A stretch of 23,511 nt of DNA from Candidatus Sigynarchaeum calidifontis (GTDB lineage: Archaea > Asgardarchaeota > Lokiarchaeia > Sigyniarchaeales > Sigyniarchaeaceae), in contig JAUQYZ020000211.1 of NCBI GenBank assembly GCA_030587475.2, forward strand, positions 1-23,511, written 5' to 3'. This document shows, in pieces, positions 1-13,510 of the stretch. Each line of letters begins with the position of its first letter. Positions within the stretch are counted from its first letter, which is position 1. The notes under the pieces are model-generated. The model was not told the origin of the DNA. It was given only the letters and a program-made list of their open reading frames with translations, and did no database searches. The translations under genes were made by a program, and so were the position numbers.

Positions 1-1363
1 GGTGTAGTCCCATGGCGTCCTTGAACCCGAGATCGCCCGTGTAGAGCACGCCTTCCTTGGAAATGGTCTTTCGCGTGGCCTCCTCGTTCCCGAAGTATCC
101 TTTAAAGACTTGCGGCCCGGTATAGCAAATCTCGCCGATTTCACCATCTGGCAAGGCATCGCCCGCGGTACCATCGGGGTTCATCGGCTTCCTGATTGAA
201 AGCGGGGTGATCGGATAATCGAAACCCACGGATTGCATGATTTGCTCGATCTTCCAGTCGATGCGCGTGTACGAGCACAAGCCAGATATTTCAGTCAAGC
301 CAAGACCGGTTCCATAATGCGGGGCCATGGTCGCGAGCCGCTCGAGGAACTTGCGCGAGACGCTTTGCCCGCCATACACGACGTACCGGAGGGAGCTGAT
401 GTCATATTTCGCGTAGTCGGGTAGCCGCCACTCCATGACGAAAAGCGACGGGATCTGGCCGAAGATCGTGACCTTGTAATCCTCGATCGCTTTCATGGTC
501 TTGTCGGCGAAGAATGCATGGAGGATCACGGCGATCCCGCCAGCGAAGATGGTGGTCATCAGCTGTTCCGTCTGGCATCCGACGTGGGACGGGGGCAAGT
601 TCACGAGCATGCGATCCTTTTGCGTGATCTCGCACGCTTTAGTCATACAGAAGTTTTGCGCTACGATGCCGACGTTCGTGAGCATCGCTGGCTTCGGGAA
701 GCCCGTCGATCCGGTCGTGTAGATGATGAAAATGGGGTCGTCCTCTTTCACCTTCGATGCGACCTCTTCCAGGTGCTGTAATTTTCCCGATAGCTCCCCG
801 GATTTCAAGTATCCCGCGTATTTTTCCCGCGCTTCCTTCACGAACTTGAGCCAGCTCAACCACGCCTTGTCCCTTGGGGCGTCTTCGATAGGCGCGAACA
901 TCATAAAGTACTTGATGGACGGGATGGCCTTGTGGATGCTCACGGCATAGTCCTTGAACGGGTAGTAGACTTGCTTCCCGTAACGGTCTTCCGTTTCCGT
1001 GTTGTCGAGATGCACGAACATCTTGAGCTTGGATTTCAAGAGATCCGCGGATTTCACCAGTTCATCTTCCTTGAGGCGGGAATCAAGGGGCGCGAACATG
1101 ACGCCGAGCTTGAAGCATGCGTATTCGAGGAAGATGTGCTCGGGAAGCAAGGGTAGCATCGATGCGACGATGTCGCCCTTTTCAAAGCCGTAATCGAGGA
1201 GCTGGAGGGCGATCATGTTGATCGCGATCTCGAATTCCTTCCACGTGATGAATCGACCCTCGTCAGCATCGATGATCGCGTAGTCGTTCGGCCGTTCTTT
1301 TGCGTGTTTGGAAACGTAATCGTTAAGGAAATGGGGGATGGTGTTGAATTCTTCGATTGACAT
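1..1363 (-). CDS. Long-chain acyl-CoA synthetase / AMP-binding (ANL) enzyme, 3' end runs off the window
   Basis: Not in the ORF track because it has no stop in the window. Manual translation from ATG 1363 gives MSIEEFNTIPHFLNDYVSKHAKERPND..., with P-loop IIYTTGSTGFPK, GLGLTE (YGxTE variant), GEIGEICYTGPQVFKGYFGN and LYTGDLG. GGAGG at 1376-1380 on the minus strand. Confidence 0.93.
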   Translation of the reverse strand, partial: MSIEEFNTIPHFLNDYVSKHAKERPNDYAIIDADEGRFITWKEFEIAINMIALQLLDYGFEKGDIVASMLPLLPEHIFLEYACFKLGVMFAPLDSRLKEDELVKSADLLKSKLKMFVHLDNTETEDRYGKQVYYPFKDYAVSIHKAIPSIKYFMMFAPIEDAPRDKAWLSWLKFVKEAREKYAGYLKSGELSGKLQHLEEVASKVKEDDPIFIIYTTGSTGFPKPAMLTNVGIVAQNFCMTKACEITQKDRMLVNLPPSHVGCQTEQLMTTIFAGGIAVILHAFFADKTMKAIEDYKVTIFGQIPSLFVMEWRLPDYAKYDISSLRYVVYGGQSVSRKFLERLATMAPHYGTGLGLTEISGLCSYTRIDWKIEQIMQSVGFDYPITPLSIRKPMNPDGTAGDALPDGEIGEICYTGPQVFKGYFGNEEATRKTISKEGVLYTGDLGFKDAMGLH

Positions 1364-1383
1364 CGTTTCATTTGGCCTCCTTT

Positions 1384-2862
1384 CTAATAATGTCCGGCGG
1401 TGAGTCCGGTCTTGATATCTTCGAGCAATTGCGCGTATTCCTTCTTGATATGGTAACCCGCGACGGGGGTCGTCCCTTCCAACGGTTCCATGCCGCCCTC
1501 GTCGATATACTCGTTCAAGTCGAAGAAATAAGCAAACCAATCGTTCACGTGTTGGAATATGAGAGTATTTTCTGGTTTCGTGTGAGATTGGGCGATGAGA
1601 TAATTGCCGACGTCCTCGAACGGTTCCCCGGGCGTGCCAAAAATGCTAAAATCGAGCCGCCGGGAGCTCGTGCTCGATGTGAGGTGGAATTTCATGTAGG
1701 TAATCTTGCTATAGCAGTGCATCGACAGGCTGCGATGCTTGATCGCCAGCCCGGGGAAGTTCGGTTCTTTTTCCTCGTTCCCCGCGATGAGCAATACTAC
1801 CGGTAAGAGGAAATACTTTTTCACGGCATAGACGATCCGGTTCTGCAGCTTGACGAGAGCGGAGTGGCCAGGCCTCGAGGAATGGTATCGTGTAAAATCT
1901 CTCAATGGTACCCAGATCGTGCGAACATAAATCTCGCATTCAAACTTATCATAATACGCGTCATCGGGGATATCCCTCGCGACTTGCAAAGCCCGATCGC
2001 CAAGGAAATCACCGAAGCGGTGCATGTCCTTGGCCTTGCCGTCCTGGCCGAGGATCTGGTTGGTGGTGAGGTGATCAAAATCCGTGCCACACGTAACGAT
2101 AGGGTTGATATCGCCTCCCGAACCGCCAAAAAAGACGGCTTTCACTGCCCCTCCCGTGAGTTTCTCGACTCGGGCCACCATGCGACCCGGGTAATCTCCG
2201 GACACCTTGTCATTCGTTCTACCAAGTGTCGTGGAATGACAAGTGAAATTCACCATGAATCCAAGCAATGTATTCGTTTTCGCATGCTTGAACGCGATGA
2301 TGCCGAGTGGCGACTTGGACCGGCGCGTTGGATGGCGCCGGTTGATGATCACGTCCTCCATAACCGTGGTTTTCGTGTATGCGACCTTGCATGGAACGAG
2401 CTCTCTCACCATTGCATCCACCATCTTCAGGATGCGATAGGTGATGAACACCATGTATTTGTCGTTCCGGTTGAGGCCGAACATGATGCCCCGCATGATA
2501 GCCGGAACGTTGCCCGGCCAGTGAAACTCGCCAGTTAAATCAGGAGCTTGATGCGTGTGGGTAGCGTGGACGATGATCTGGTTCGGGTTGATCCAGAAGC
2601 GTCTTTGCACCTTTTCCTTTATATAATCCGCGAATTTCATCGGGATCTTGAGCGTGTCGATCGAGATGAACAAGAAGCGCCTTTCAATGTTGTCCAACGT
2701 GGTATCCTCGACCAGCACGGCATGGACCATGAGAGGGTCGAGAATTCCCCTTGCATAGTGGTTCCTGGAATATCCTGCCATGGCGATCTTCGCGGCTTCA
2801 CCCTTTCCAGCCAACAACTCTGGCGGCGTGATATCTATCTTCCCGAACGCGACCTTCATCAT
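1384..2862 (-). CDS. Neutral/alkaline ceramidase-like Zn amidohydrolase (paralog A)
   Basis: N-terminal DITP...MAGY...GILDPL, HATHTHQAP (HTHSGP-like Zn motif), NRR, NFTCHSTT, SGDYPG, GSGGDINP, PGEPF: the motif order of the ceramidase N-terminal-domain family. Substrate unproven. Confidence 0.8.
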   Translation of the reverse strand: MMKVAFGKIDITPPELLAGKGEAAKIAMAGYSRNHYARGILDPLMVHAVLVEDTTLDNIERRFLFISIDTLKIPMKFADYIKEKVQRRFWINPNQIIVHATHTHQAPDLTGEFHWPGNVPAIMRGIMFGLNRNDKYMVFITYRILKMVDAMVRELVPCKVAYTKTTVMEDVIINRRHPTRRSKSPLGIIAFKHAKTNTLLGFMVNFTCHSTTLGRTNDKVSGDYPGRMVARVEKLTGGAVKAVFFGGSGGDINPIVTCGTDFDHLTTNQILGQDGKAKDMHRFGDFLGDRALQVARDIPDDAYYDKFECEIYVRTIWVPLRDFTRYHSSRPGHSALVKLQNRIVYAVKKYFLLPVVLLIAGNEEKEPNFPGLAIKHRSLSMHCYSKITYMKFHLTSSTSSRRLDFSIFGTPGEPFEDVGNYLIAQSHTKPENTLIFQHVNDWFAYFFDLNEYIDEGGMEPLEGTTPVAGYHIKKEYAQLLEDIKTGLTAGHY

Positions 2863-2872
2863 AAAACACCTT

Positions 2873-4324
2873 TCAAAAATGACCCGCAGTTAAACCCTCT
2901 TCGATATCTTCAAAGAGTTGGATAAAGTGCTTCTTTAAATACTTCCCAGCAACAGGCGTCAAGCTTTCCATCGGCTCGCCTCCTCCATACGTGTATTCGC
3001 TATAATCGAACAAGTATGCCATCCAGTCCGTCGACATCTGGAACATGAACGAGTTTTCGAAGCCCTCCTTCGTGCGCCGCTGGATGTACCTGCCAAAATG
3101 GCGCAATGGTTCCCCGGGAATGCCGATGATGTTGAACGAGCCCGTCTTGCCCGTAGCGGTGTCCGTGGCCACGAAGCGGAAATACTGGATTTTGGTGTAA
3201 CACTGGACATTCATGAGACCCCGGTGCTTGAGAGCAAGGCCCGGGAAGTTCGGCTCGTTATCGTGCGTGATCGCAAACACGATGGGTAACAAAAAATACT
3301 TCTTGCTTAAATGCCAGAACCTGTTCTGGATTCTCACGAGGGGATTGTATTTGCCCTTGAAATCATCGATTGGCAACCACGTGAGACGCGTGTAACATTT
3401 TGCCTCGATGCGATCGAAATACGCGCTGGCAGGTATGGACCTGGCAAAATCAAGCGCGATATCACCGATCATTCCACCATATTCGTCTATGGCATTTTCA
3501 CGTGCTGCTTGCGAGATGCGAAAACGCACGCGCTTGCCGGCGAACCTGGCCTTCCGGATTTTCTTGATATAGGTATGGAGGCCCGCAAACGATGGGCTCA
3601 CGTCCCCCGCTGCATCGTTAAAGAAGACCGCTTTGAATCCCGAACACGACTCGATCCGTGCGACAAGTCGCCCCGGCCATTCAGCTGAGAGCAAGTAATT
3701 CCGGTTTGACAAGATGGTCGGGTGCGCGCCGAAATTTACAGCCACGCCGATAATGGCATCTGTATCCAAGTTCTTGAAGCAGATAATACCCAAGTCTGGC
3801 ACGTAGGGTTTCGTGTAGTGGCGGCGGTTGTGGATCACGTGTCCATTGATCACGGTCCTGGCCCAGGCGATCTTGCACGGTTCCATGTGCTGCAACATCT
3901 CTCCGACCATCTTCACGATCTGGCGCGCCATCCACACGAGCAGCTTGTCGTTGCGCCCCGTGCCGAACATGATGCTGCGCACGGTGTTGCCGAGATTGCC
4001 GGGCCAGTGGTACTCTCCCGTGAGATCTAGCCCCGCGTGTGTATGGATGGCATGGATCAGGACCGCGCCCGGGGCGATCTTATATGCATCGAACAACTTT
4101 TCCTTGATATAGTCCGTGAACTTGAGCGGCACCTTCATCGTGTCGATCGAGATGAGGAGCACGCGTTTCTTGACGTTGCCAAGGATCGTGTCCTCGATCA
4201 AGATGCCCCGCGCGTAGAGCGTATCCATGACGCCTTGCACGCGCTTTTTGCGGTAGTATCCAGCCAGCGAGAGACCGGACAGGTCTGCGGGAGTTACCGA
4301 GACCTTGCCAAACGCGACGTGCAT
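2873..4324 (-). CDS. Neutral/alkaline ceramidase-like Zn amidohydrolase (paralog B)
   Basis: LAGY...GVMDTLYAR, HAIHTHAG, NRR, NFGAHPT, SAEWPG, AAGDVSP, PGEPL. Colinear with paralog A, sharing DLTGExHWPGN, KKYFLLP, EPNFPGLA and C-terminal GLTAGH(Y/F). Confidence 0.8.
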   Translation of the reverse strand: MHVAFGKVSVTPADLSGLSLAGYYRKKRVQGVMDTLYARGILIEDTILGNVKKRVLLISIDTMKVPLKFTDYIKEKLFDAYKIAPGAVLIHAIHTHAGLDLTGEYHWPGNLGNTVRSIMFGTGRNDKLLVWMARQIVKMVGEMLQHMEPCKIAWARTVINGHVIHNRRHYTKPYVPDLGIICFKNLDTDAIIGVAVNFGAHPTILSNRNYLLSAEWPGRLVARIESCSGFKAVFFNDAAGDVSPSFAGLHTYIKKIRKARFAGKRVRFRISQAARENAIDEYGGMIGDIALDFARSIPASAYFDRIEAKCYTRLTWLPIDDFKGKYNPLVRIQNRFWHLSKKYFLLPIVFAITHDNEPNFPGLALKHRGLMNVQCYTKIQYFRFVATDTATGKTGSFNIIGIPGEPLRHFGRYIQRRTKEGFENSFMFQMSTDWMAYLFDYSEYTYGGGEPMESLTPVAGKYLKKHFIQLFEDIEEGLTAGHF

Positions 4325-4401
4325 TGCATATCCCGACGGGAGAAATTATTTGATGCCAAGAAAGGTGGGCATTTATGCTTGTATAACGGAACTAGAATAT
4401 C

Positions 4402-5175
4402 ATGCGCATGCTCTTCATAGGGCCGCACCCGGATGACATTGAGTTCACGTGTGCCGGGACGTGCAAGCATGCCGTGGACCTCGGCTGGGACGTGCACGAG
4501 CTTCTTATGACGAGCGACGAATACGGGACGCCGAGAAACGAGTTCAAGGGCAAGCGGATCAAGCGGATCCGCGTTCACGAGATGATCGAGGCCGCGAAGG
4601 AATATGGAACGAACATGGACGGGACCCCGAGGCTCCAGCTGCACTGGTTCGGGGAGATCGACGGGCACTTGCGGTTCAACAACGAGGTATTGGACAAGTT
4701 GAAGCGTTTCATCCTCGAGCTGCGACCGCGTGTCGTCATCGCTCCGGACAGCTTCTTCACGATGGACTATCACGTCGACCACATGCGAACCGGCTGGCTT
4801 GCCTACATCGCCGTCAAGGCGATGCCGCCCGCGGAGCGCCCCATGCTTCTCCTCTACCATTCCACGGCGAACGACTTCTACATCCCCATCTACGACCTTG
4901 CCATTAAGATTGCCGCGTGGTCGAAGCACCGGTCGCAGACCACGCCGCTCGCTTGCAAGGTTCTCGCGAAAGTGCACGTGCTCCTTTATTTCTTGCGCCG
5001 GCGAAAGACCGGTGCGGCTATCGCGGAGGGATTCCGGCGCGCGAGGTTTGCCGATGGAGAGAACGAGCCGACCCGGCTATGCCAGAAAGCATGGCACTGT
5101 TTCTTCTATCGGAACAACAAGGGCTTCCCGCCCACGTATTATCTTCCGACTCCAGACGCGTTGGGATTGCGGTGA
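4402..5175 (+). CDS. PIG-L/LmbE family Zn-dependent de-N-acetylase
   Basis: GPHPDDIE motif, RxxE (RVHEMIEAA), DG, HVDH, and HRSQ...EGF near the C-terminus. Confidence 0.9.
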   Translation: MRMLFIGPHPDDIEFTCAGTCKHAVDLGWDVHELLMTSDEYGTPRNEFKGKRIKRIRVHEMIEAAKEYGTNMDGTPRLQLHWFGEIDGHLRFNNEVLDKLKRFILELRPRVVIAPDSFFTMDYHVDHMRTGWLAYIAVKAMPPAERPMLLLYHSTANDFYIPIYDLAIKIAAWSKHRSQTTPLACKVLAKVHVLLYFLRRRKTGAAIAEGFRRARFADGENEPTRLCQKAWHCFFYRNNKGFPPTYYLPTPDALGLR

Positions 5176-6611: not shown

Positions 6612-6619
6612 TATAAAAG
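6612..6619 (+). promoter_or_regulatory. TATA box (TATAAAAG) of the JAMM gene
   Basis: Canonical TATA sequence about 40-55 nt upstream of the candidate starts at 6660/6666/6672. Confidence 0.6.
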
Positions 6620-6659: not shown

Positions 6660-8717
6660 GTGTTGATGGACATGTCTTACACGCCAGAAGAGATCAAGCA
6701 GATCAACAAGAAACCCGTGCGCATCTTGCCGGGTGCCTACCAAAAGATGCTCATGCACGTGCTACGATTTGGTTCTCCGGGGATTCCCAAGGATCAGTGG
6801 CGAGAATGCTATGGCATGGTCATCGGGAAGTTCAGCAAGGAGGCGGGCATTACAGTGACCGATGCCCTCGCCTCGACTCATGGTTCCGACATCGGGGTCG
6901 AGTTCATGGAGAAAAACTACGTGCTCATGGCAGAATTCCAAGATCAGCTAGATAAAATAAACGCAGAGGTCGCTAATCCCGCCGACCAGGTCTTTATCGT
7001 GGGTTGGTATCACTCTCACCCCGGGATGGCACGTTTCTTGAGTTCTGTCGACGTGCGTAACCAGATCGCCTACCAGACTGCAGCGTTCCCTTTCGGCATC
7101 GCCATCGTGTTCGACAATACCTGCATCTTTCAAAAAGAACCCGTTTCCGGCCAGCTCGATCTCGGTTTCAAGATATTTCGACTCGATGACCCGACATCGA
7201 CCGAGGTCAACATCCCGTTCTCGGAGGTGCCGTTCGACCGGACGCTCCTTGACAAGCCGGATCTTATTGAGCTCTGGCGGAACGAGATGGCCATGATTGA
7301 AAACGTGCAAAAGCGCGCTCCCATTATCAAGGAATACCAGGAAACCCCTTCTGTCTTTGGCGACTTCAAGTTACCGACGACGGCCGATTTGAAAGAGGCA
7401 GGAACAGGCATCACGAGTGCCGAGCGGCAGGAGATCACGATCCTCCCCCTTGCCGACCTCGACCAGGTCTTCACCCGCGGCATGCAACTCTTCATCCAGA
7501 AATATCAAGCACTCCCCGCCGACCAGAAAAAATCCTTCGAGGGCTTCATCGAGCAAGGCATGACGCCGTTCATCGACAAGACGGTCGCGACGGTCGTCAC
7601 GGGGCTCAACGAGTGGACGAGGAAGCTGCGTGAGGACATAGATAAACGCGTGAATTACGGCATCGCCGCGCTCGACACGATGAAATCGACGATGAAAGGC
7701 ATCCAGGACAGTTTCCTCGCATATTTGAAGCAGAATGCCGATGCAAGCCGCGAGAAGAGCCACGAACTTGCGAAATCTGTTGACAAGGTCGAGCTGCTCG
7801 TTAAGAAAATATTCACGGATAATAAAAGCGACTTGCACACACTCTTCAAGGAAACGACGGCAGCCTGGCACGAGCTCATTGACAGCGCGGGTAAAAAATT
7901 GGCTCAAACCGAGCTGGCCTCAATTAAAGCCGAGCTCGAGCGGCTCGGGAGCGGCATTGTTGGCAGTGCGAAAACAAGTCCAGATACCGCGGCAAGCAAG
8001 CCCGACTTCGAGAGCCTCAACGACGTTCTCGCGCGGCATATCCAAGCCGTGAACGCAGCGATCCAGGAAGCGAATGATATCCGCGCCGCGAAGCCTGCCC
8101 CGCCGCTGCTCGGCGATTTCAAGATCCCGAGCACCGCGGAGATCAAGAGCCTCGTATCGTTCGTCGACCACGTCGACGAGGTGACCACGGACCTGCTGGC
8201 CATGAAGGATATCGCGATGGGATTCAAGCAAGGGCTTGCCGAATTCACCCGGTTTTACGATGGGCTTTCGCCCGACCAGCGGAACGACTTCCAGCTCATC
8301 AACGAGAAGGGCATCCAGCCGCTATCAGACAAGGTCATTACCAATCTCGTGAAGGGCATCAACCAGTGGACTATCAGCTTACGCGATGACATCGACCGGC
8401 GGATCAACTTGCTCGTTTCCACGGCGAACGAGATGCAGCGCACGATGAAAAACATCTTCAGCGACTATGTCGAATTTCTCGTAACATCTACCGATCCATC
8501 GGCGAAGATCGCACGCGAGGCTACCCGGATCCTGGCTTCCGTCGAAACGACCGCTATTGCCAGCTTTAACAACATCATCACGTACGTGCAACAAGTCATG
8601 GAAAATTTGATGGCGCAATATAGCGGCCAGTTAGAACAGCAGAAAGCGGCGCTCGATGCCAAGGAGTTGAAGAATATCACGAAGGCCATCGAGAACTTGA
8701 AAAAGAGCATGAAATAA
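6660..8717 (+). CDS. MPN+/JAMM metalloprotease (Rpn11/CSN5/BRCC36-like) with two tandem ~250-aa helical repeats
   Basis: ECYGMVIG (catalytic Glu) and VGWYHSHPGMARFLSSVD, an exact HxHx7Sx2D motif (7011-7052), followed by AIVFD...FKIFRL. The C-terminal part is alpha-helical and duplicated. The real start may be ATG 6666 or 6672. Confidence 0.9.
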   Translation: MLMDMSYTPEEIKQINKKPVRILPGAYQKMLMHVLRFGSPGIPKDQWRECYGMVIGKFSKEAGITVTDALASTHGSDIGVEFMEKNYVLMAEFQDQLDKINAEVANPADQVFIVGWYHSHPGMARFLSSVDVRNQIAYQTAAFPFGIAIVFDNTCIFQKEPVSGQLDLGFKIFRLDDPTSTEVNIPFSEVPFDRTLLDKPDLIELWRNEMAMIENVQKRAPIIKEYQETPSVFGDFKLPTTADLKEAGTGITSAERQEITILPLADLDQVFTRGMQLFIQKYQALPADQKKSFEGFIEQGMTPFIDKTVATVVTGLNEWTRKLREDIDKRVNYGIAALDTMKSTMKGIQDSFLAYLKQNADASREKSHELAKSVDKVELLVKKIFTDNKSDLHTLFKETTAAWHELIDSAGKKLAQTELASIKAELERLGSGIVGSAKTSPDTAASKPDFESLNDVLARHIQAVNAAIQEANDIRAAKPAPPLLGDFKIPSTAEIKSLVSFVDHVDEVTTDLLAMKDIAMGFKQGLAEFTRFYDGLSPDQRNDFQLINEKGIQPLSDKVITNLVKGINQWTISLRDDIDRRINLLVSTANEMQRTMKNIFSDYVEFLVTSTDPSAKIAREATRILASVETTAIASFNNIITYVQQVMENLMAQYSGQLEQQKAALDAKELKNITKAIENLKKSMK
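7359..8714 (+). repeat. Intragenic protein-level tandem duplication, period 753 nt (251 aa)
   Basis: GDFKLPTTADLK at 7359 vs GDFKIPSTAEIK at 8112; YQALPADQKKSF vs YDGLSPDQRNDF; GMTPFIDK vs GIQPLSDK; GLNEWTRKLREDIDKRVN vs GINQWTISLRDDIDRRIN; MKSTMKGI vs MQRTMKNI. Confidence 0.9.
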
Positions 8718-8773: not shown

Positions 8774-9289
8774 TCACGAGGCCTCCCGGGTTACTTCCAT
8801 GAGGCTCAAGTCCCTGTTGAGCTTGCATTCCGTGCGTATCTTCTTCAGGATTTTCACGCACTTGACCGGTGCGCCCTTGGCAAGGGTGTTCTTCGGGAGG
8901 TCGCAATTCGGTTGATAAATGCACAGCTTCTCCGGGCAGTTTTGTCCCATGTACGTGAGGCGCATGCCTTCAAAAGTTTTACCCGACGGGAGCGAGACGA
9001 TCAGTGGCTTTTCCTTCACTTTTACGACGACCATCTCGCCGGGAAACAGCTTCCTCGGGCATTCATGTTTGATGTTATCGTTAACGTCCTTGATGACGTA
9101 GACACGGCCCTTCTCCAGGTTTTTCATGCAGATCTGGTAGAGCGGGCAATTTATACATGCGTCCGGCGTCTCGTCGTGGATGAATTCCTTGCCGATTTGC
9201 GCATTGCGCTCAAGTGCCAAGGTGACAAGGTATTCCTTCTTCCCTTGGTCGGGGATCTTGTCCGTCCGGTTCTTTTTCAAGTAGGACAT
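8774..9289 (-). CDS. UPF0179 family protein (archaeal, Cys-rich)
   Basis: VTL...AQIGKEF...CINCPLYQIC...LEKGRVY...HECP...VVKVKE, a second CxxxxCxxxxxC cluster and a terminal C...L...V: the UPF0179 pattern. Confidence 0.85.
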   Translation of the reverse strand: MSYLKKNRTDKIPDQGKKEYLVTLALERNAQIGKEFIHDETPDACINCPLYQICMKNLEKGRVYVIKDVNDNIKHECPRKLFPGEMVVVKVKEKPLIVSLPSGKTFEGMRLTYMGQNCPEKLCIYQPNCDLPKNTLAKGAPVKCVKILKKIRTECKLNRDLSLMEVTREAS

Positions 9290-9316
9290 GGCTCGGGTTT
9301 ATGAATGGTGGACAAG

Positions 9317-9498
9317 AAAAAAAAACAAACAGCTTGAACGATGAGAAAAATCTGCCGCAGCCCTGAAGGGCTCCTTACCCTTTTGCGGGCTTATTTGACG
9401 TGTTAAATGACGCTTCACCGATGAAAAAGACAGAAAACATTAACGAGAGGAGAGAAATTCCAATGGTTAACGCACGTTTAAGATGTTGAAGAAAAAGG
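9317..9498 (-). terminator. Series of U-tracts and a GC hairpin downstream of aCPSF1
   Basis: Minus-strand T-tracts at ~9492-9496, ~9424-9436, 9346-9350 and a T9 run at 9317-9325, plus a GC-rich stem region at 9355-9388. Confidence 0.55.
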
Positions 9499-9515
9499 TG
9501 AAGTTCCCGTTCTTC

Positions 9516-11411
9516 TTAATTCAAGAACATGGTTTCCAAATTCTTCGGGGCCTTGGTCTCGCATTTTACCCTTTGATGGATAGTAGACGCGAGGTTGACG
9601 CATTTCGTGGCCTCGCCGTGACAGGTGATGACCCGGTCTGGTTTCGGGCGAAGTTTTCGAAGGTAACCCATGATCTGCGACCGGCTGCTGTGGCCGGAGA
9701 AGCCCTCGATCGTCTCGACCTGGAGGTTGAGCCTTACCACGTGTCGCTTGCCCTTCTCGTCGACGGCGGTGAAGTCTTTCCATCCCTTCTGCACCCGGCG
9801 ACCGAGCGTGCCCTCTACCTGGTATGAAACGAAAAGCAAGCAGTTCTTGGGGTTATCGGCGAGCCGCTCGAGGTACTGCACGGACGGGCCGCCCTGGAGC
9901 ATGCCGCTCGTGGCCATGATGATGCACGGGTCGCCCTCGACGATGTCATCCCTGGCATTCTGGCTGTCGACCTGGTGAAACGACTCGCACAAGAACGGGT
10001 TGTGGCCTTGGTGGAAGATCTTTTCGCGCAGCTCGTCCGACAAGTATTCCGGATGGGTCGTGTGGATAGCGGTGGCCTCCGAGATCATGCCATCGATGAA
10101 CACGGGGATGTCCGGGATGCGTTTACCGAGCATTTCCTCGAGCACGATCATGATCTCTTGCGCGCGGCCGACCGCGAGCACTGGAATGAGAATTTTTCCT
10201 TTCCGGTTGATGACGTCATTGATGAGGTTCACCAGGCGGCGTTCACTCTCGTGGCGGGATTGCATGACATCGTGGGGGCCGCCGTACGTGGCTTCGATGA
10301 CGATGGTCTCGAGTCGCGGGAACTTGTACGACGCGGGCTCGAGCAGCTTGGTGCGCTGGAATTTAAAGTCGCCCGTGTAGACGATGTTGTAATTGCCGTC
10401 GCCGATGTGCAAGTGCGCCATTGCCGATCCGAGTATATGGCCGCTATTATGGAACGTGAGCTTGACGTCGGGGGCGATGTCGGTGACCTCGTTATATTCT
10501 AGCGGGATGGCCGACAAGATCTCTTTTTTTATGTCTTTCTTCGTGTAAATCGGATCCCTGCCCTCTTTATCCGCGATGTCCACGTAATCGAGCTGGAGCA
10601 TCGTGGCGAGGTTGCGTGTTGGTTGCGTCATGAAGACGGGGCCGTGATAGCCCCATTTATAAAGATACGGCACGAAACCACTGTGATCCATGTGCGCGTG
10701 GGTCACGACCACGGCATCGAGCTTGTCGAGGTTGAATTCCGGCACATCAAATCTCGGGAACTCGTTCTCCGACGAGCTGAAATTCACACCGCAGTCGATC
10801 ATGACGTTCGATTCCTTGGTCTGGAGCAGCAAGCAAGTCCTTCCCACTTCTCTAAAACCACCGAGCGTCGAGAGTCGAACCTCCGTGTTCTTGTATAACG
10901 TGGGCCGGTGTATCCGATGGCCGATGGCGAGCAAATATTTTTTCTGCAGCTCTTTCTCTTTCTTGATCAGCTCTCGAACAGAGTCTACCGTTTTTGACTC
11001 TATGGGGGGTGTGCGCACGACGTTGGGGCGCCAGAGGGTCTTCTCCCTGATAATCTTGAGGGTAAGCCCCCCCTTGCCGATGACAAGGCCTGGTTTCTTC
11101 GCTGCGATGATGACCTCCCCGAGGTTCGAGTCAAACGTGATCTTCGATATTTCCGCTTCTTGTGGGACCTCCTTCTGGATAAAGGCCATGGCTTCATCTG
11201 AAGGAGTGCGGATCGACGGGTCCGCGCGGATGACGATGCGCTTGCGGATTTCCTTGGCCAGATTCTTCAAGGCATCGCCGTTCGCGATGACTTCATTCCG
11301 GTTCTTGCTGTAAACGGCGATTTCAGGCCCTTCGAACTCGACTGCATTAAAATCCGGGATGTATCTGCGTATTATATCTTTATAATGTTCAAGAACGTCG
11401 ACAGAAGACAT
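9516..11411 (-). CDS. fttA: aCPSF1 / FttA: KH-KH-MBL-beta-CASP ribonuclease, transcription termination factor
   Basis: VEFEGPEIAVYS, KH GxxG loop (KKPGLVIGKGG), LGGFREVGR, THAHMDH, GHILGS, YTGDFK, VGRAQE, SGMLQGG, GFSGHS, CHGE. ATG 11411 (MSSVDVL) preferred over TTG 11429. Confidence 0.97.
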   Translation of the reverse strand: MSSVDVLEHYKDIIRRYIPDFNAVEFEGPEIAVYSKNRNEVIANGDALKNLAKEIRKRIVIRADPSIRTPSDEAMAFIQKEVPQEAEISKITFDSNLGEVIIAAKKPGLVIGKGGLTLKIIREKTLWRPNVVRTPPIESKTVDSVRELIKKEKELQKKYLLAIGHRIHRPTLYKNTEVRLSTLGGFREVGRTCLLLQTKESNVMIDCGVNFSSSENEFPRFDVPEFNLDKLDAVVVTHAHMDHSGFVPYLYKWGYHGPVFMTQPTRNLATMLQLDYVDIADKEGRDPIYTKKDIKKEILSAIPLEYNEVTDIAPDVKLTFHNSGHILGSAMAHLHIGDGNYNIVYTGDFKFQRTKLLEPASYKFPRLETIVIEATYGGPHDVMQSRHESERRLVNLINDVINRKGKILIPVLAVGRAQEIMIVLEEMLGKRIPDIPVFIDGMISEATAIHTTHPEYLSDELREKIFHQGHNPFLCESFHQVDSQNARDDIVEGDPCIIMATSGMLQGGPSVQYLERLADNPKNCLLFVSYQVEGTLGRRVQKGWKDFTAVDEKGKRHVVRLNLQVETIEGFSGHSSRSQIMGYLRKLRPKPDRVITCHGEATKCVNLASTIHQRVKCETKAPKNLETMFLN

Positions 11412-11660
11412 GTTAATTCCACAGTACAATATGTTGTTGTTGGTTGATGCGTTCTATGCACGGCGTGTGTTCGATCGATGCCGGCAGTGATGCGAGGAAG
11501 CAATCGAAGTGCCACGCCTTGTAACACAACTGTATTTTATGATGATTCAAGGATCGTTACTTTAACCAAATTCTAAGGTCGATTTGGGTCTTCGATTTTT
11601 ACCTAGAAGTAGTAAAACAAGTTAGGTAAAATCAACTCAAGATCGTAATGAATGACGAAC

Positions 11661-11668
11661 CTTAAAAA
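11661..11668 (-). promoter_or_regulatory. TATA box (TTTTTAAG) with purine-rich upstream flank; putative internal promoter for aCPSF1
   Basis: Minus strand reads GGGAATGG-TTTTTAAG just after the psmB stop, predicting a TSS near 11640 and a ~230-nt leader. Confidence 0.5.
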
Positions 11669-11694
11669 CCATTCCCCTTAATCGCACCACGTCG

Positions 11695-12348
11695 TCATTT
11701 TCGAGGGTCAATCGTTCGTTTCTCAATACCGTCTTTTGTTATTACCAAAATGTCAATGCCGTTGCCCGTGAATATGTCTCTGGAGATGCTTGCCTTGATA
11801 GCTTTCTTGGCGAGCTCGATGCCTTCCTCGATGGTCATCCCCTCCTTGTATCCATCTTCGAGCACGCCGTATGCGTAAACAGAGCCAGAACCAGTGCTGG
11901 TATACATTTCTTTCAAGATGGAACCATCTCCACCCACATCATAAAGTTTCGGGCCTTCGACATCAACCCCGCCAACGATGTGCTGCACCTCGTAAGGGAA
12001 CGGGTACTTTGCCCTGTACAGCTCGTTGGCGAGTATCTTCACGATCGTGTTCACGGGTGCCATCTTGCCATGCTTGAGCTCGTAGAGCCGGGCTTCCGCG
12101 TTCATGAGATCGATCAAGCACTGCGCGTCAGCCACGGCGCCAGCGATCGTCATCGCGATGCTCTTCGAAATCGGGTGAATCTTGTTCGCGGTCTTGCTCG
12201 CGATGAAAGCACCCTCGGTTGCCCGCTTATCCGCGGCTAATATAACAGCATCTTTAACGACCATGCCCAGCGTCGTCGTGCCCGTGCGCAGCGCGTGTTC
12301 TTTCGAGCGATGTGCGCCCGCGGGATTTGTATTGGTTACATCCATCAT
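11695..12348 (-). CDS. psmB: 20S proteasome beta subunit (Ntn hydrolase with propeptide)
   Basis: Propeptide cleavage site TG/TTT, AADKRAT, ANKI (Lys33), IAGAVADAQ, STGSGS, SRD...G. Start ATG 12348/12345 or 12375; the 12510 start would overlap the divergent gene. Confidence 0.96.
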   Translation of the reverse strand: MMDVTNTNPAGAHRSKEHALRTGTTTLGMVVKDAVILAADKRATEGAFIASKTANKIHPISKSIAMTIAGAVADAQCLIDLMNAEARLYELKHGKMAPVNTIVKILANELYRAKYPFPYEVQHIVGGVDVEGPKLYDVGGDGSILKEMYTSTGSGSVYAYGVLEDGYKEGMTIEEGIELAKKAIKASISRDIFTGNGIDILVITKDGIEKRTIDPRK

Positions 12349-12391
12349 CTTCACGAAGCCGGTTTTCTTAGTCATACTATGTAGAGCAGTG

Positions 12392-12399
12392 TTAAATAA
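12392..12399. promoter_or_regulatory. AT-rich TATA-like element (TTAAATAA / TTATTTAA) between divergent psmB and the radical SAM gene
   Basis: AT-rich octamer centred in the ~80-nt divergent spacer. Confidence 0.45.
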
Positions 12400-12430
12400 T
12401 GACTCTTGTGATTTTGAATTATGGGCATCG

Positions 12431-13510
12431 ATGAACATGGCATCCAAGACAAGTCCGCTGCAGATGCTTGAACGCGTCCAGGCGCGCGACCACGTGAAAA
12501 ACCACTTCATAGTTCAATCTATCCCGGCAGGGGTCGATATTCAAGGATTGTCACGTATGACAATCGAAGATGCATGGGTGCTGCACGACCGATTGCACGA
12601 GCGCTTTCTCGAAAAACGAGCGGATTCTAATGCATCCATCGATAAAGCGTCACCGAGCTATCTCGACGTGAAGATCAAGCTCGCGAGATCGATGCTGGAG
12701 TCTTGTAACTTTTGCGAGCGCCGCTGCGCGGTCGACCGGGTCGCCGGGAAAAAGGGCACGTGCCGGGTGGAAGCGTCCCCGCGCGTGAGCTCAGCTTTCC
12801 TCCACTTTGGTGAGGAGAGCCCGATTGTGCCCAGCGGTACCATCTTCTTCGCGGGTTGCAATTTTGCGTGTGTGTTTTGTCAGAACGAGGACATCTCGAC
12901 AGATCCAGAAAATGGTATGCTTGTAACGCCGCAAAAGTTAGCAAAAATCGCTATATCGCTTGCGATGGATGGTGCCAGGAACATCAACTATGTCGGTGGA
13001 GACCCTACGCCAAATCTCCACGTGATCATCGAATCCCTTGCCCACCAGTACATCCCCGTCGCGCAACTCTGGAACAGCAACAACTTCAACACTATCGAGG
13101 CCATGAAGCTGCTGCTCGACGTGATGGACATCTGGCTTCCGGACTTGAAGTATGGCAATGATTTATGCGCCAAGCGGTTATCTGGCATTAATGCTTATTG
13201 GTCTATCATCACACGGAACTTGAAACTCGTGCACGACGGGATGGTCGTGCCTGGCTATGCATCCCTTGTCATCAGGCATCTGGTATTGCCCGGACATGTT
13301 GACTGCTGTTCATTTCCTGCGATCAAGTGGATTGCCAAGGAACTCCCGCTCGCAATGGTTAACATCATGGGTCAATACCGGCCGCAGCACGAGGTTCTCA
13401 TCAAGCCAACAGAGTTCAAGGAAATTGCACGGCGTCCCACTTTCGAAGAGATCGATTCTGTGAGATCGCTCGCGACCCGGCTAGGTGTCATCTGGAAGCC
13501 CGTGTCGTGA
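12431..13510 (+). CDS. PflX-like (COG1313-type) radical SAM protein
   Basis: N-terminal CNFCERRC...GTC, HFGEE, SGTIFFAGCNFACVFCQN (CxxxCxxC), NINYVGGDPT, DLKYGN, RHLVLPGH, NIMGQYRP. Start ATG 12431 or 12437. Confidence 0.92.
   Translation: MNMASKTSPLQMLERVQARDHVKNHFIVQSIPAGVDIQGLSRMTIEDAWVLHDRLHERFLEKRADSNASIDKASPSYLDVKIKLARSMLESCNFCERRCAVDRVAGKKGTCRVEASPRVSSAFLHFGEESPIVPSGTIFFAGCNFACVFCQNEDISTDPENGMLVTPQKLAKIAISLAMDGARNINYVGGDPTPNLHVIIESLAHQYIPVAQLWNSNNFNTIEAMKLLLDVMDIWLPDLKYGNDLCAKRLSGINAYWSIITRNLKLVHDGMVVPGYASLVIRHLVLPGHVDCCSFPAIKWIAKELPLAMVNIMGQYRPQHEVLIKPTEFKEIARRPTFEEIDSVRSLATRLGVIWKPVS

Follow-up and report, generated by a model that had tools for sequence, protein, structure and literature searches.

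Introduction

Eukaryotic JAMM deubiquitinases are nearly always built as a pair of one active and one catalytically dead MPN protein (MPN+ and MPN-) joined by their C-terminal helices. In BRCC36-Abraxas and BRCC36-KIAA0157 (ABRO1), which form the core of BRCA1-A and BRISC, the C-terminal helices behind the MPN+ JAMM head form pairs with the helices of the second, dead MPN protein; in Rpn11-Rpn8 and CSN5-CSN6 the C-terminal helices also serve assembly. Archaea have JAMM1 desampylases (HvJAMM1, PfJAMM1), which together with Prok-JAB proteins are short and single-domain (~130-160 amino acids), and eukaryote-like JAMM proteins such as CsRpn11 of Caldiarchaeum subterraneum (PDB 6fjv, 6fnn), a single domain of ~200 amino acids that is encoded in a ubiquitin operon and processes archaeal ubiquitin (PMC6043591). 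Asgard and Caldiarchaeum JAMMs have been placed nearest to Rpn11 (Fuchs et al. 2018, PMC6043591). Here we describe a gene for a long MPN+ protein (681-685 amino acids, depending on the start) from the Lokiarchaeial Asgard archaeon Candidatus Sigynarchaeum calidifontis, located in positions 1 to 23,511 of contig JAUQYZ020000211.1 (assembly GCA_030587475.2); this whole stretch of 23,511 nucleotides is referred to as the window. The protein carries one JAMM head followed by two homologous tail units. Its orthologs bear the source names Candidatus Sigynarchaeum, Sigynarchaeota, Lokiarchaeia and Promethearchaeota, which likewise point to a Loki-type Asgard archaeon.

An MPN+ JAMM head followed by C-terminal helices is also the layout of BRCC36-Abraxas. 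That complex consists of two chains with short coiled coils, whereas the window protein is one chain with one head and two homologous tail units of ~230 amino acids, and these tails have no sequence similarity to BRCC36-Abraxas. Among eukaryotic proteins, Rpn11-Rpn8 and CSN5-CSN6 match the MPN domain best in sequence and in the Foldseek comparison; they share its E...HSH-x7-S-x2-D site and a similar Ins-1 region. In contrast to these complexes, the tail described here is at least five times longer, duplicated and unrelated in sequence, the genome lacks an MPN- partner, and none of the window neighbours is a PCI subunit. CsRpn11, the top PDB match, is likewise an archaeal eukaryote-like JAMM; the window protein differs from it in its length of 685 amino acids and in being encoded elsewhere, and another gene of the same genome, on contig C26, fits the CsRpn11 role. 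The predicted MPN fold and putative zinc site are shared with the JAMM1 and Prok-JAB proteins, which differ in being short and single-domain. The literature searched contained no description of the doubled-tail protein or of the paired long-tailed MPN family to which we compare it below.

The MPN/JAMM head

The Pfam JAB family (PF01398) matched residues 19-140 of the window protein with an E-value of 1.7e-13 and 50.9 bits (cut-off 22.5), and Prok-JAB (PF14464) reached 23.6 bits, below its cut-off of 25. A PDB sequence search returned 46 distinct sequences at E < 0.01, which comprised eukaryotic MPN+ deubiquitinases and the Caldiarchaeum Rpn11 homolog and nothing else; archaeal JAMM1, bacterial JAMM and RadC proteins were all missing. 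The matches included 6fjv (3.2e-10), yeast Rpn11 (3.8e-10), human PSMD14 (1e-8), BRCC36 (1.6e-7; 5cw3_A, limited to query residues 49-208), CSN5 (~1e-6) and AMSH-LP (4e-4). In this search E49, H118, S119, H120, S128 and D131 aligned with the catalytic residues of Rpn11, and the ortholog alignment revealed that all six are invariant in 22/22 sequences. A first reading of the locus made without database searches (the sequence-only reading) had noted an intact JAMM set in a motif context of the Rpn11/CSN5/BRCC36 type, and these searches bear out both observations.

The NCBIfam desampylase model did not match the protein at E 0.01, nor did NCBIfam yield anything else for it, and PADLOC gave marginal JAB matches with no link to a defence system. 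When the full-length AlphaFold2 (AF2) model was compared with the PDB by Foldseek, only MPN proteins of Rpn11/CSN5/BRCC36-type families were found, with a probability of 1.00 to Rpn11 and CSN5 and template modelling (TM) scores (target) of 0.5-0.6 from a low-confidence model whose MPN domain has a predicted local distance difference test (pLDDT) of 45-80. The head is called 'eukaryote-like' on the strength of its profile and PDB scores; when the MPN domain by itself served as query for homologs, 6 proteins and zero eukaryotes were recovered. The matches to Rpn11-type proteins fit the placement by Fuchs et al. 2018 (PMC6043591). By its alignments, the head is a eukaryote-like MPN+ domain of the Rpn11/CSN5/BRCC36 type with the full catalytic residue set, unlike the short prokaryotic JAMMs.

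A tandem duplication makes up the tail

Comparison of the tail with itself by BLASTP aligned residues 223-429 with 474-680 at 27% identity over 207 ungapped columns (E 5e-31), at an offset of 251. When sub-alignments of the orthologs were compared by hhalign, the match extended to residues 201-432 versus 452-683, with 232 ungapped columns, a probability of 99.9% and an E-value of 4.3e-35. Two colinear repeats offset by exactly 251 residues, covering nearly the whole post-MPN region, had been proposed from the sequence, and both points hold. The suspicion that the repeat extends back towards a KPD segment was borne out: the similarity begins with the helix right after KPD (from residues 201 and 452). 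Between the two copies of KPD, the offset is 248 instead of 251.

Each unit begins with a short helix, continues with an extended motif (PSVFGDFKLPTT in unit 1, PPLLGDFKIPST in unit 2) and ends in a helical region that starts with a strictly conserved W-x4-R-x-D-x-D-x-R-x-N signature. Altogether the tail of ~480 amino acids is a tandem duplicate of a ~250-amino-acid unit with a PxxFGDFxxPT motif and a helical region that is long and amphipathic. Mean pairwise identity among orthologs was 81% for the MPN domain, 56% for unit 1 and 60% for unit 2, and 22% for the 19-residue linker between the units. Because both units are conserved among orthologs and the linker is variable, both are taken to be under selection. 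The tail is a genuine tandem duplication, ancient and conserved, of a helical orphan unit.

The orphan status of the unit was supported by every collection searched. A profile of 24 units run against 1.84 billion representative proteins recovered the family's own representative and two fragments thereof, together with three further marginal matches to unrelated helical proteins. Pfam searches with the 24 single units gave no family in more than 4/24, all far under the cut-offs, and the tail had no match in NCBIfam, PADLOC, the ESM Atlas or the PDB, by sequence or by Foldseek. A feature search of the ESM Atlas returned nothing usable for the tail or for a protein of the related gene1 type described below. 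The self-alignment is significant, the MPN domain stays below the cut-offs of the prokaryotic JAMM models and the repeat matches no described family; the earlier impression that no characterised protein has this architecture is upheld, since neither a characterised protein nor a Pfam family matches the tail.

A wider family of long-tailed MPN+ proteins

The same genome encodes a paralog, P0038 (contig C133, G000:C133:3580-5070), of 497 amino acids, in which an intact MPN+ head is followed by the post-MPN motif of the window protein and a single helical tail; the two proteins share 30% identity over 463 amino acids. A third group of 484-499 amino acids ('gene1' type) is common in other Lokiarchaeia. 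All three groups carry the motif E-x-P/T-x-hydrophobic-F-G/S-D/H-x3-hydrophobic-P ~100 residues past HSHP. By hhalign, the tail units of the window protein matched C133-type tails with a probability of 94-96% (unit 1, 96.4%; E down to 1e-9) and gene1 tails more weakly (73-88%). Judged by these comparisons, the window protein is a member of a wider Lokiarchaeial superfamily of long-tailed MPN+ proteins and hence not unique in kind. In the MPN tree, the doubled-tail clade was fully supported, with a long stem and short internal branches, and joined gene1 weakly (80/43).

Other relatives were also identified. The P0038 tail gave weak matches, far under the cut-offs, to the coiled-coil models of ZorA, SMC and LmuB (E 1e-7 to 1e-3), which probably reflect the compositional similarity of long helices rather than homology. 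A further paralog (L004, G000:C54:463-2160, minus strand) has 566 amino acids, with a disordered linker joining the MPN+ head to a C-terminal part that is helical and TPR-like; its relatives P0026 and P0057 are fusions of the same kind, with the MPN domain C-terminal in one.

The distribution of these groups was determined in 400 Asgard species genomes, with the GTDB families labelled f1 to f4 and the window genome in f1. The doubled-tail unit was found in 4/400 genomes, all in f1 (4/4, including the window genome), and strong C133-type matches occurred in all four f1 genomes and nowhere else in the 400. The 484-type tail was present in 126/135 genomes of f4, 1/1 of f2, 3/14 of f3 and 0/4 of f1. 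The doubled-tail protein is therefore a variant restricted to one Asgard family, within a known kind of enzyme.

A gene pair with an often degenerate second head in sister families

Directly behind gene1 lies a second long MPN gene, gene2 (446-479 amino acids). In f4, gene1 and gene2 each occur in 126/135 genomes, gene2 at full length and at coordinates abutting gene1, and 11 loci sampled across different genera have frames that overlap or are at most 10 nucleotides apart (L022:7001-9825 and L023:7001-9840; also L036, L038-L041, L043, L044, L046 and L047). Analysis by hhalign revealed that the tails of gene1 and gene2 are homologous (probability 96.8%, E 2e-10). The JAMM residues are complete in gene1 of 11/11 pairs; in gene2 at least one zinc ligand or the catalytic Glu is lost in 7/11 pairs, through substitutions of Glu by Gln, of the first His by Leu, Ile, Ser or Cys, of Ser by Val or Asn, and of Asp by Gly or Glu. 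By residue content, gene1 and gene2 show the same active/dead pattern as Rpn11-Rpn8, CSN5-CSN6 and BRCC36-Abraxas.

The pair and the window protein belong to the same superfamily, with an MPN+ head, an ExPxxFGDxxxP motif ~100 amino acids past HSHP and a long helical tail, and in both there is one predicted active head for two homologous tails. They differ in that the pair is encoded by two genes of one operon and its second head is often dead, whereas the window protein is the product of one gene and the second head is absent. No f1 genome matched the gene1/gene2 tail profile (0/4), and in the window no further MPN gene adjoins the MPN gene. Matches of P0075 (gene2) in f1, at E 1e-21 to 1e-24, proved to be MPN-domain similarity only and were rejected as gene2 orthologs. 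The doubled-tail protein and the two-gene pair thus have a complementary family distribution (f1 versus f4).

Two further genes were seen near the pair. One is a third, shorter MPN+ gene of 316-349 amino acids with a short helical tail (L022:314-1363 and L023:3706-4656, both on the minus strand). The other is a conserved gene of 763-771 amino acids without a Pfam match (L022:10255-12546, L023:10365-12680); the window genome has a distant homolog of it (L035, G000:C4:4692-5900; 23% identity, E 2e-12), unlinked to MPN genes.

Origin of the second tail

When a tree was built from residues 1-175 of every tail, a branch with support of 100/100 placed unit 1 and unit 2 together on one side. Fusion of gene1 and gene2 with loss of the second head was considered as a source of the doubled tail and rejected: the tree joining unit 2 with gene2 was excluded by the approximately unbiased (AU) test (p-AU 0.0155), and the hhalign match of unit 2 to gene2 tails reached only 25% probability. 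Since unit 1 and unit 2 group together and the grouping of unit 2 with gene2 is rejected, the doubled tail arose by internal duplication in the f1 lineage.

A proposed single-chain scaffold and its alternatives

We propose that the window protein is a zinc-dependent ubiquitin/ubiquitin-like isopeptidase in which the two units of the tail pair intramolecularly as a scaffold, and put the probability of this reading at about 0.5; activity, substrate, pairing and scaffold role are all predicted. The MPN+/JAMM head would most likely remove ubiquitin or a ubiquitin-like modifier from proteins. Ubiquitin or a relative is a plausible substrate because the genome has its own ubiquitin, E1 and E2 genes. 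The tail units would most likely pack against each other intramolecularly to give a two-stalk helical scaffold, which would keep the single catalytic head in place or control it, and bring in partners or substrates. One polypeptide would then do the job that falls to gene1 (always active) and gene2 (often dead) in the sister families and to MPN+/MPN- heterodimers in eukaryotes. The pseudo-dimer is the best available reading, supported mainly by the sister lineages, which reach one active head and two homologous tails with two genes.

Structure prediction was applied to the tail as well. The AF2 model of the full-length protein (22-sequence alignment) had a pLDDT of 58.9 and a predicted TM score (pTM) of 0.33 and was all-helical and non-compact. 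For one unit (56-sequence alignment with paralog tails), AF2 gave a pLDDT of 69.2 and a pTM of 0.26, with one 140-residue helix at pLDDT 76-90; a lone long helix is typically the picture that AF2 draws of a helix needing a partner. When unit 1 and unit 2 were submitted to an ESMFold2 complex test, the median interaction prediction score from aligned errors (ipSAE) was 0.41, with 0.00 for the best control, and the verdict was 'weak support'; agreement between runs covered at least 59% of contacts, and the partner pLDDT was at least 55. The mark applied is reached by 58/80 solved complexes and 2/110 mismatched pairs and, at scores of 0.60 or below, by 7/80 solved complexes and both passing mismatches. 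The test is thus a hint that unit 1 may pack against unit 2. For the single-chain pseudo-dimer suggested by the sequence-only reading, a tandem pair in sister families that is absent from f1 lends indirect support, and the complex test gives weak support.

Several observations weigh against intramolecular pairing in a ubiquitin-system enzyme. Both AF2 models are of low confidence and give no usable tail fold, and the hydrophobic periodicity of 3.6-3.8 shows no clean heptad and so does not establish a classical coiled coil. Besides being weak, the complex prediction has the drawback that homologous helical chains may be modelled next to each other whether or not they bind. The comparison with the two-gene pair is by analogy and itself presupposes that gene1 and gene2 tails pair. 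The single-tail MPN+ paralog P0038, from the same genome, could be the real partner. Finally, the window MPN gene lies outside the ubiquitin operon, which has an Rpn11-like gene of its own.

The extended shape of the predicted tail would also suit a duplicated tail that simply lengthens a stalk, so that a parallel homodimer or higher oligomer carries two heads on a stalk of ~40 nm. The 140-residue helix of the single unit and the all-helical, non-compact full-length model are compatible with this arrangement, and BRCC36-KIAA0157 heterodimers also form higher-order 'super-dimers' (PMC4579573). Against it, ~110 residues separate the long helices, among them the flexible variable linker and the repeated extended motif, which is a better fit to two modules; the unit 1/unit 2 complex test exceeded all controls, though weakly; and the sister lineages use two different chains. 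We consider a lengthened stalk unlikely.

P0038 could instead supply the second tail from outside, in a heterodimer that would be the f1 counterpart of gene1/gene2, now unlinked. Both proteins occur in all four f1 genomes, with strong matches nowhere else, unit 1 is homologous to the P0038-type tail, and the whole proteins are related over most of the paralog's length at the identity given above. The two genes, however, are unlinked and have unrelated neighbours, and the JAMM site is complete in both proteins, unlike the active/dead gene1/gene2. These points make such a partnership improbable, and we retain pairing of the two units within one chain as the preferred reading.

Ubiquitin system and genomic neighbourhood

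The 4.99-Mb assembly contains six JAB loci, with a complete JAMM motif in 6/6. Because all six loci keep the full motif, the genome is without an MPN- protein. A eukaryote-like operon on contig C26 (L021, 5350-11448) encodes a ubiquitin-like protein, E1 (ThiF), E2 (UQ_con) and a JAB protein (Table 1), and another ubiquitin gene lies on C61. The C26 JAB gene is the natural Rpn11-like gene of the ubiquitin system and the window gene a separate paralog. The operon also holds a 378-amino-acid gene without an assigned function, and on the other strand (L021 9691-11448) a 585-amino-acid VWA-ubiquitin fusion precedes a gene for a coiled-coil protein.

Upstream of the MPN gene (plus strand), the window contains an acyl-CoA-ligase-like gene and two ceramidase-like genes on the minus strand, then PIG-L and a NIPA-like transporter on the plus strand; downstream are UPF0179, aCPSF1/FttA and a proteasome beta-type subunit on the minus strand, then radical SAM and AOR genes on the plus strand. 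Most of this order is kept in three ortholog loci (56-69% identity). Ceramidase-like genes lie upstream in 3/3, the AMP-binding ligase in 2/3 and PIG-L in 2/3, the NIPA-like gene was not called in any of the three, and the series UPF0179-aCPSF1-proteasome-radical SAM-AOR is kept in both loci that reach that far. The listed open reading frames (ORFs) 11695-12510 and 12182-13510 are over-extended, their orthologs having 208-216 and 354-375 amino acids. This synteny carries little functional weight because a single lineage supplied the orthologs, and each flanking gene either has a separate promoter or is read from the opposite strand.

The conserved ceramidase-like, AMP-binding and PIG-L genes could hint at a non-ubiquitin enzyme, whose apolipoprotein-like amphipathic helices would attach to membranes or lipid bodies and whose head would trim an amide-linked substrate of another kind. 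The periodicity of the tail is that of amphipathic helices, and paralog tails carry precomputed matches to Apolipoprotein (PF01442). Yet that family touches 2/24 tail units only, at E 0.04, the neighbouring genes lie on the opposite strand or are separately promoted, the orthologs are all drawn from one family, and the MPN domain is nearest to bona fide deubiquitinases; a lipid-associated role is therefore improbable.

Least probable is that the protein is the functional Rpn11 of an archaeal proteasome cap: a proteasome beta-type gene does lie 3 kb away in an arrangement kept in orthologs, and Rpn11 is the best eukaryotic match, but UPF0179, aCPSF1 and psmB are convergent with the MPN gene and not co-transcribed with it, psmB beside aCPSF1 is widespread in archaea and also occurs where no MPN gene is present, lid partners of the PCI or MPN- type were not seen, and the ubiquitin operon has another Rpn11-like candidate.

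Gene start, promoter and features of the locus

The full-length orthologs (n = 21) have 656-690 amino acids and are 55-90% identical to the window protein. Their N-termini correspond to M5 (MSYT...) of the window protein or lie two residues before it, and the ESM Atlas record of the protein begins at residue 5. Because both lines place the N-terminus at or near M5, the true start is probably ATG 6672 or 6666, not GTG 6660. A TATA-like box, TATAAAAG, suggests that the MPN gene has its own promoter. With this box, a divergent upstream gene in one ortholog locus and a convergent UPF0179 gene downstream, the MPN gene looks monocistronic.

One ortholog is incomplete. In L015 (G280:C1:3074616-3078263), from a single-contig genome of the same family, the frame at 766-2505 (minus strand) matches P0015 at 99.6% only from residue 142 onward. 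The first 141 codons, with the Glu, HSH, Ser and Asp positions, are absent from the locus, and a serine hydroxymethyltransferase-like gene lies upstream; this ortholog is either a truncated copy or an assembly fault.

Table 1. Coordinates of the long MPN+ gene, its parts, flanking gene blocks and the ubiquitin operon (window positions unless marked L021).
Feature	Position	Strand	Basis or context
Long MPN+ protein gene	6660..8717	+	685 codons open from GTG 6660; likely start ATG 6672/6666; stop 8715-8717
TATA-like box TATAAAAG	6612..6619	+	Sequence reading; ~53 nt upstream of ATG 6672
MPN/JAMM domain, residues ~19-198	6714..7253	+	Pfam JAB; PDB sequence matches; Foldseek; ortholog identity 81%
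Catalytic Glu codon (E49)	6804..6806	+	Aligns with Glu of Rpn11 EVMG motif; invariant in 22/22
JAMM motif H118-S-H120-x7-S128-x2-D131 (predicted zinc site)	7011..7052	+	PDB alignment and ortholog alignment
Tail unit 1, residues 201-432	7260..7955	+	hhalign versus unit 2; short helix leading into the extended motif and then the helical region
Conserved extended motif PSVFGDFKLPTT, residues 230-241, copy 1	7347..7382	+	P, F, G, F, P, T invariant in orthologs
W-x4-R-x-D-x-D-x-R-x-N, W319-N332, copy 1	7614..7655	+	Invariant in both units of 12 diverse orthologs
Variable Gly/Ser/Ala-rich inter-unit linker, residues 433-451	7956..8012	+	Indels; 22% ortholog identity; pLDDT <50
Tail unit 2, residues 452-683	8013..8708	+	BLASTP and hhalign versus unit 1; 60% ortholog identity
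Motif PPLLGDFKIPST, residues 481-492, copy 2	8100..8135	+	Ortholog alignment
W-x4-R-x-D-x-D-x-R-x-N, W570-N583, copy 2	8367..8408	+	Invariant in both units of 12 diverse orthologs
Two ceramidase-like paralogs and AMP-binding (acyl-CoA-ligase-like) ligase (-), divergent PIG-L deacetylase	2-5175		ORF block
UPF0179, aCPSF1/FttA, proteasome beta-type subunit	8774-12510	-	Block convergent with MPN gene
Ubiquitin-like gene	L021 5350-5847	operon strand	Contig C26
E1 ThiF	L021 5913-7142	operon strand	Contig C26
E2 UQ_con	L021 7196-7723	operon strand	Contig C26
297-amino-acid JAB/Rpn11-like gene	L021 7681-8574	operon strand	Contig C26

Implications

Loki-type Asgard archaea hold a long-tailed MPN+ family that takes the form of a two-gene active/dead pair in most lineages and of a single chain in this one, with a tail that is an orphan module of strictly conserved motifs and no assigned fold. 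These proteins bear on the origin and minimal requirements of MPN+/MPN- modules. If the tail units pair, the second head would be dispensable and the tail pair essential, and the protein, as one polypeptide, would make an archaeal ubiquitin-system enzyme easier to study by structural and biochemical means. A tentative extension, to which we give somewhat less than even odds, is that the paired tails, and not a second head, are the functional core of such enzymes, and that two lineages independently reached one active head on two homologous stalks, one by gene duplication with decay of the second site and the other by duplication of the tail within the gene. If this is true, the window protein would be a natural single-chain minimal MPN+/MPN- deubiquitinase module and a tractable model for the working and origin of the Rpn11-Rpn8, CSN5-CSN6 and BRCC36-Abraxas design.

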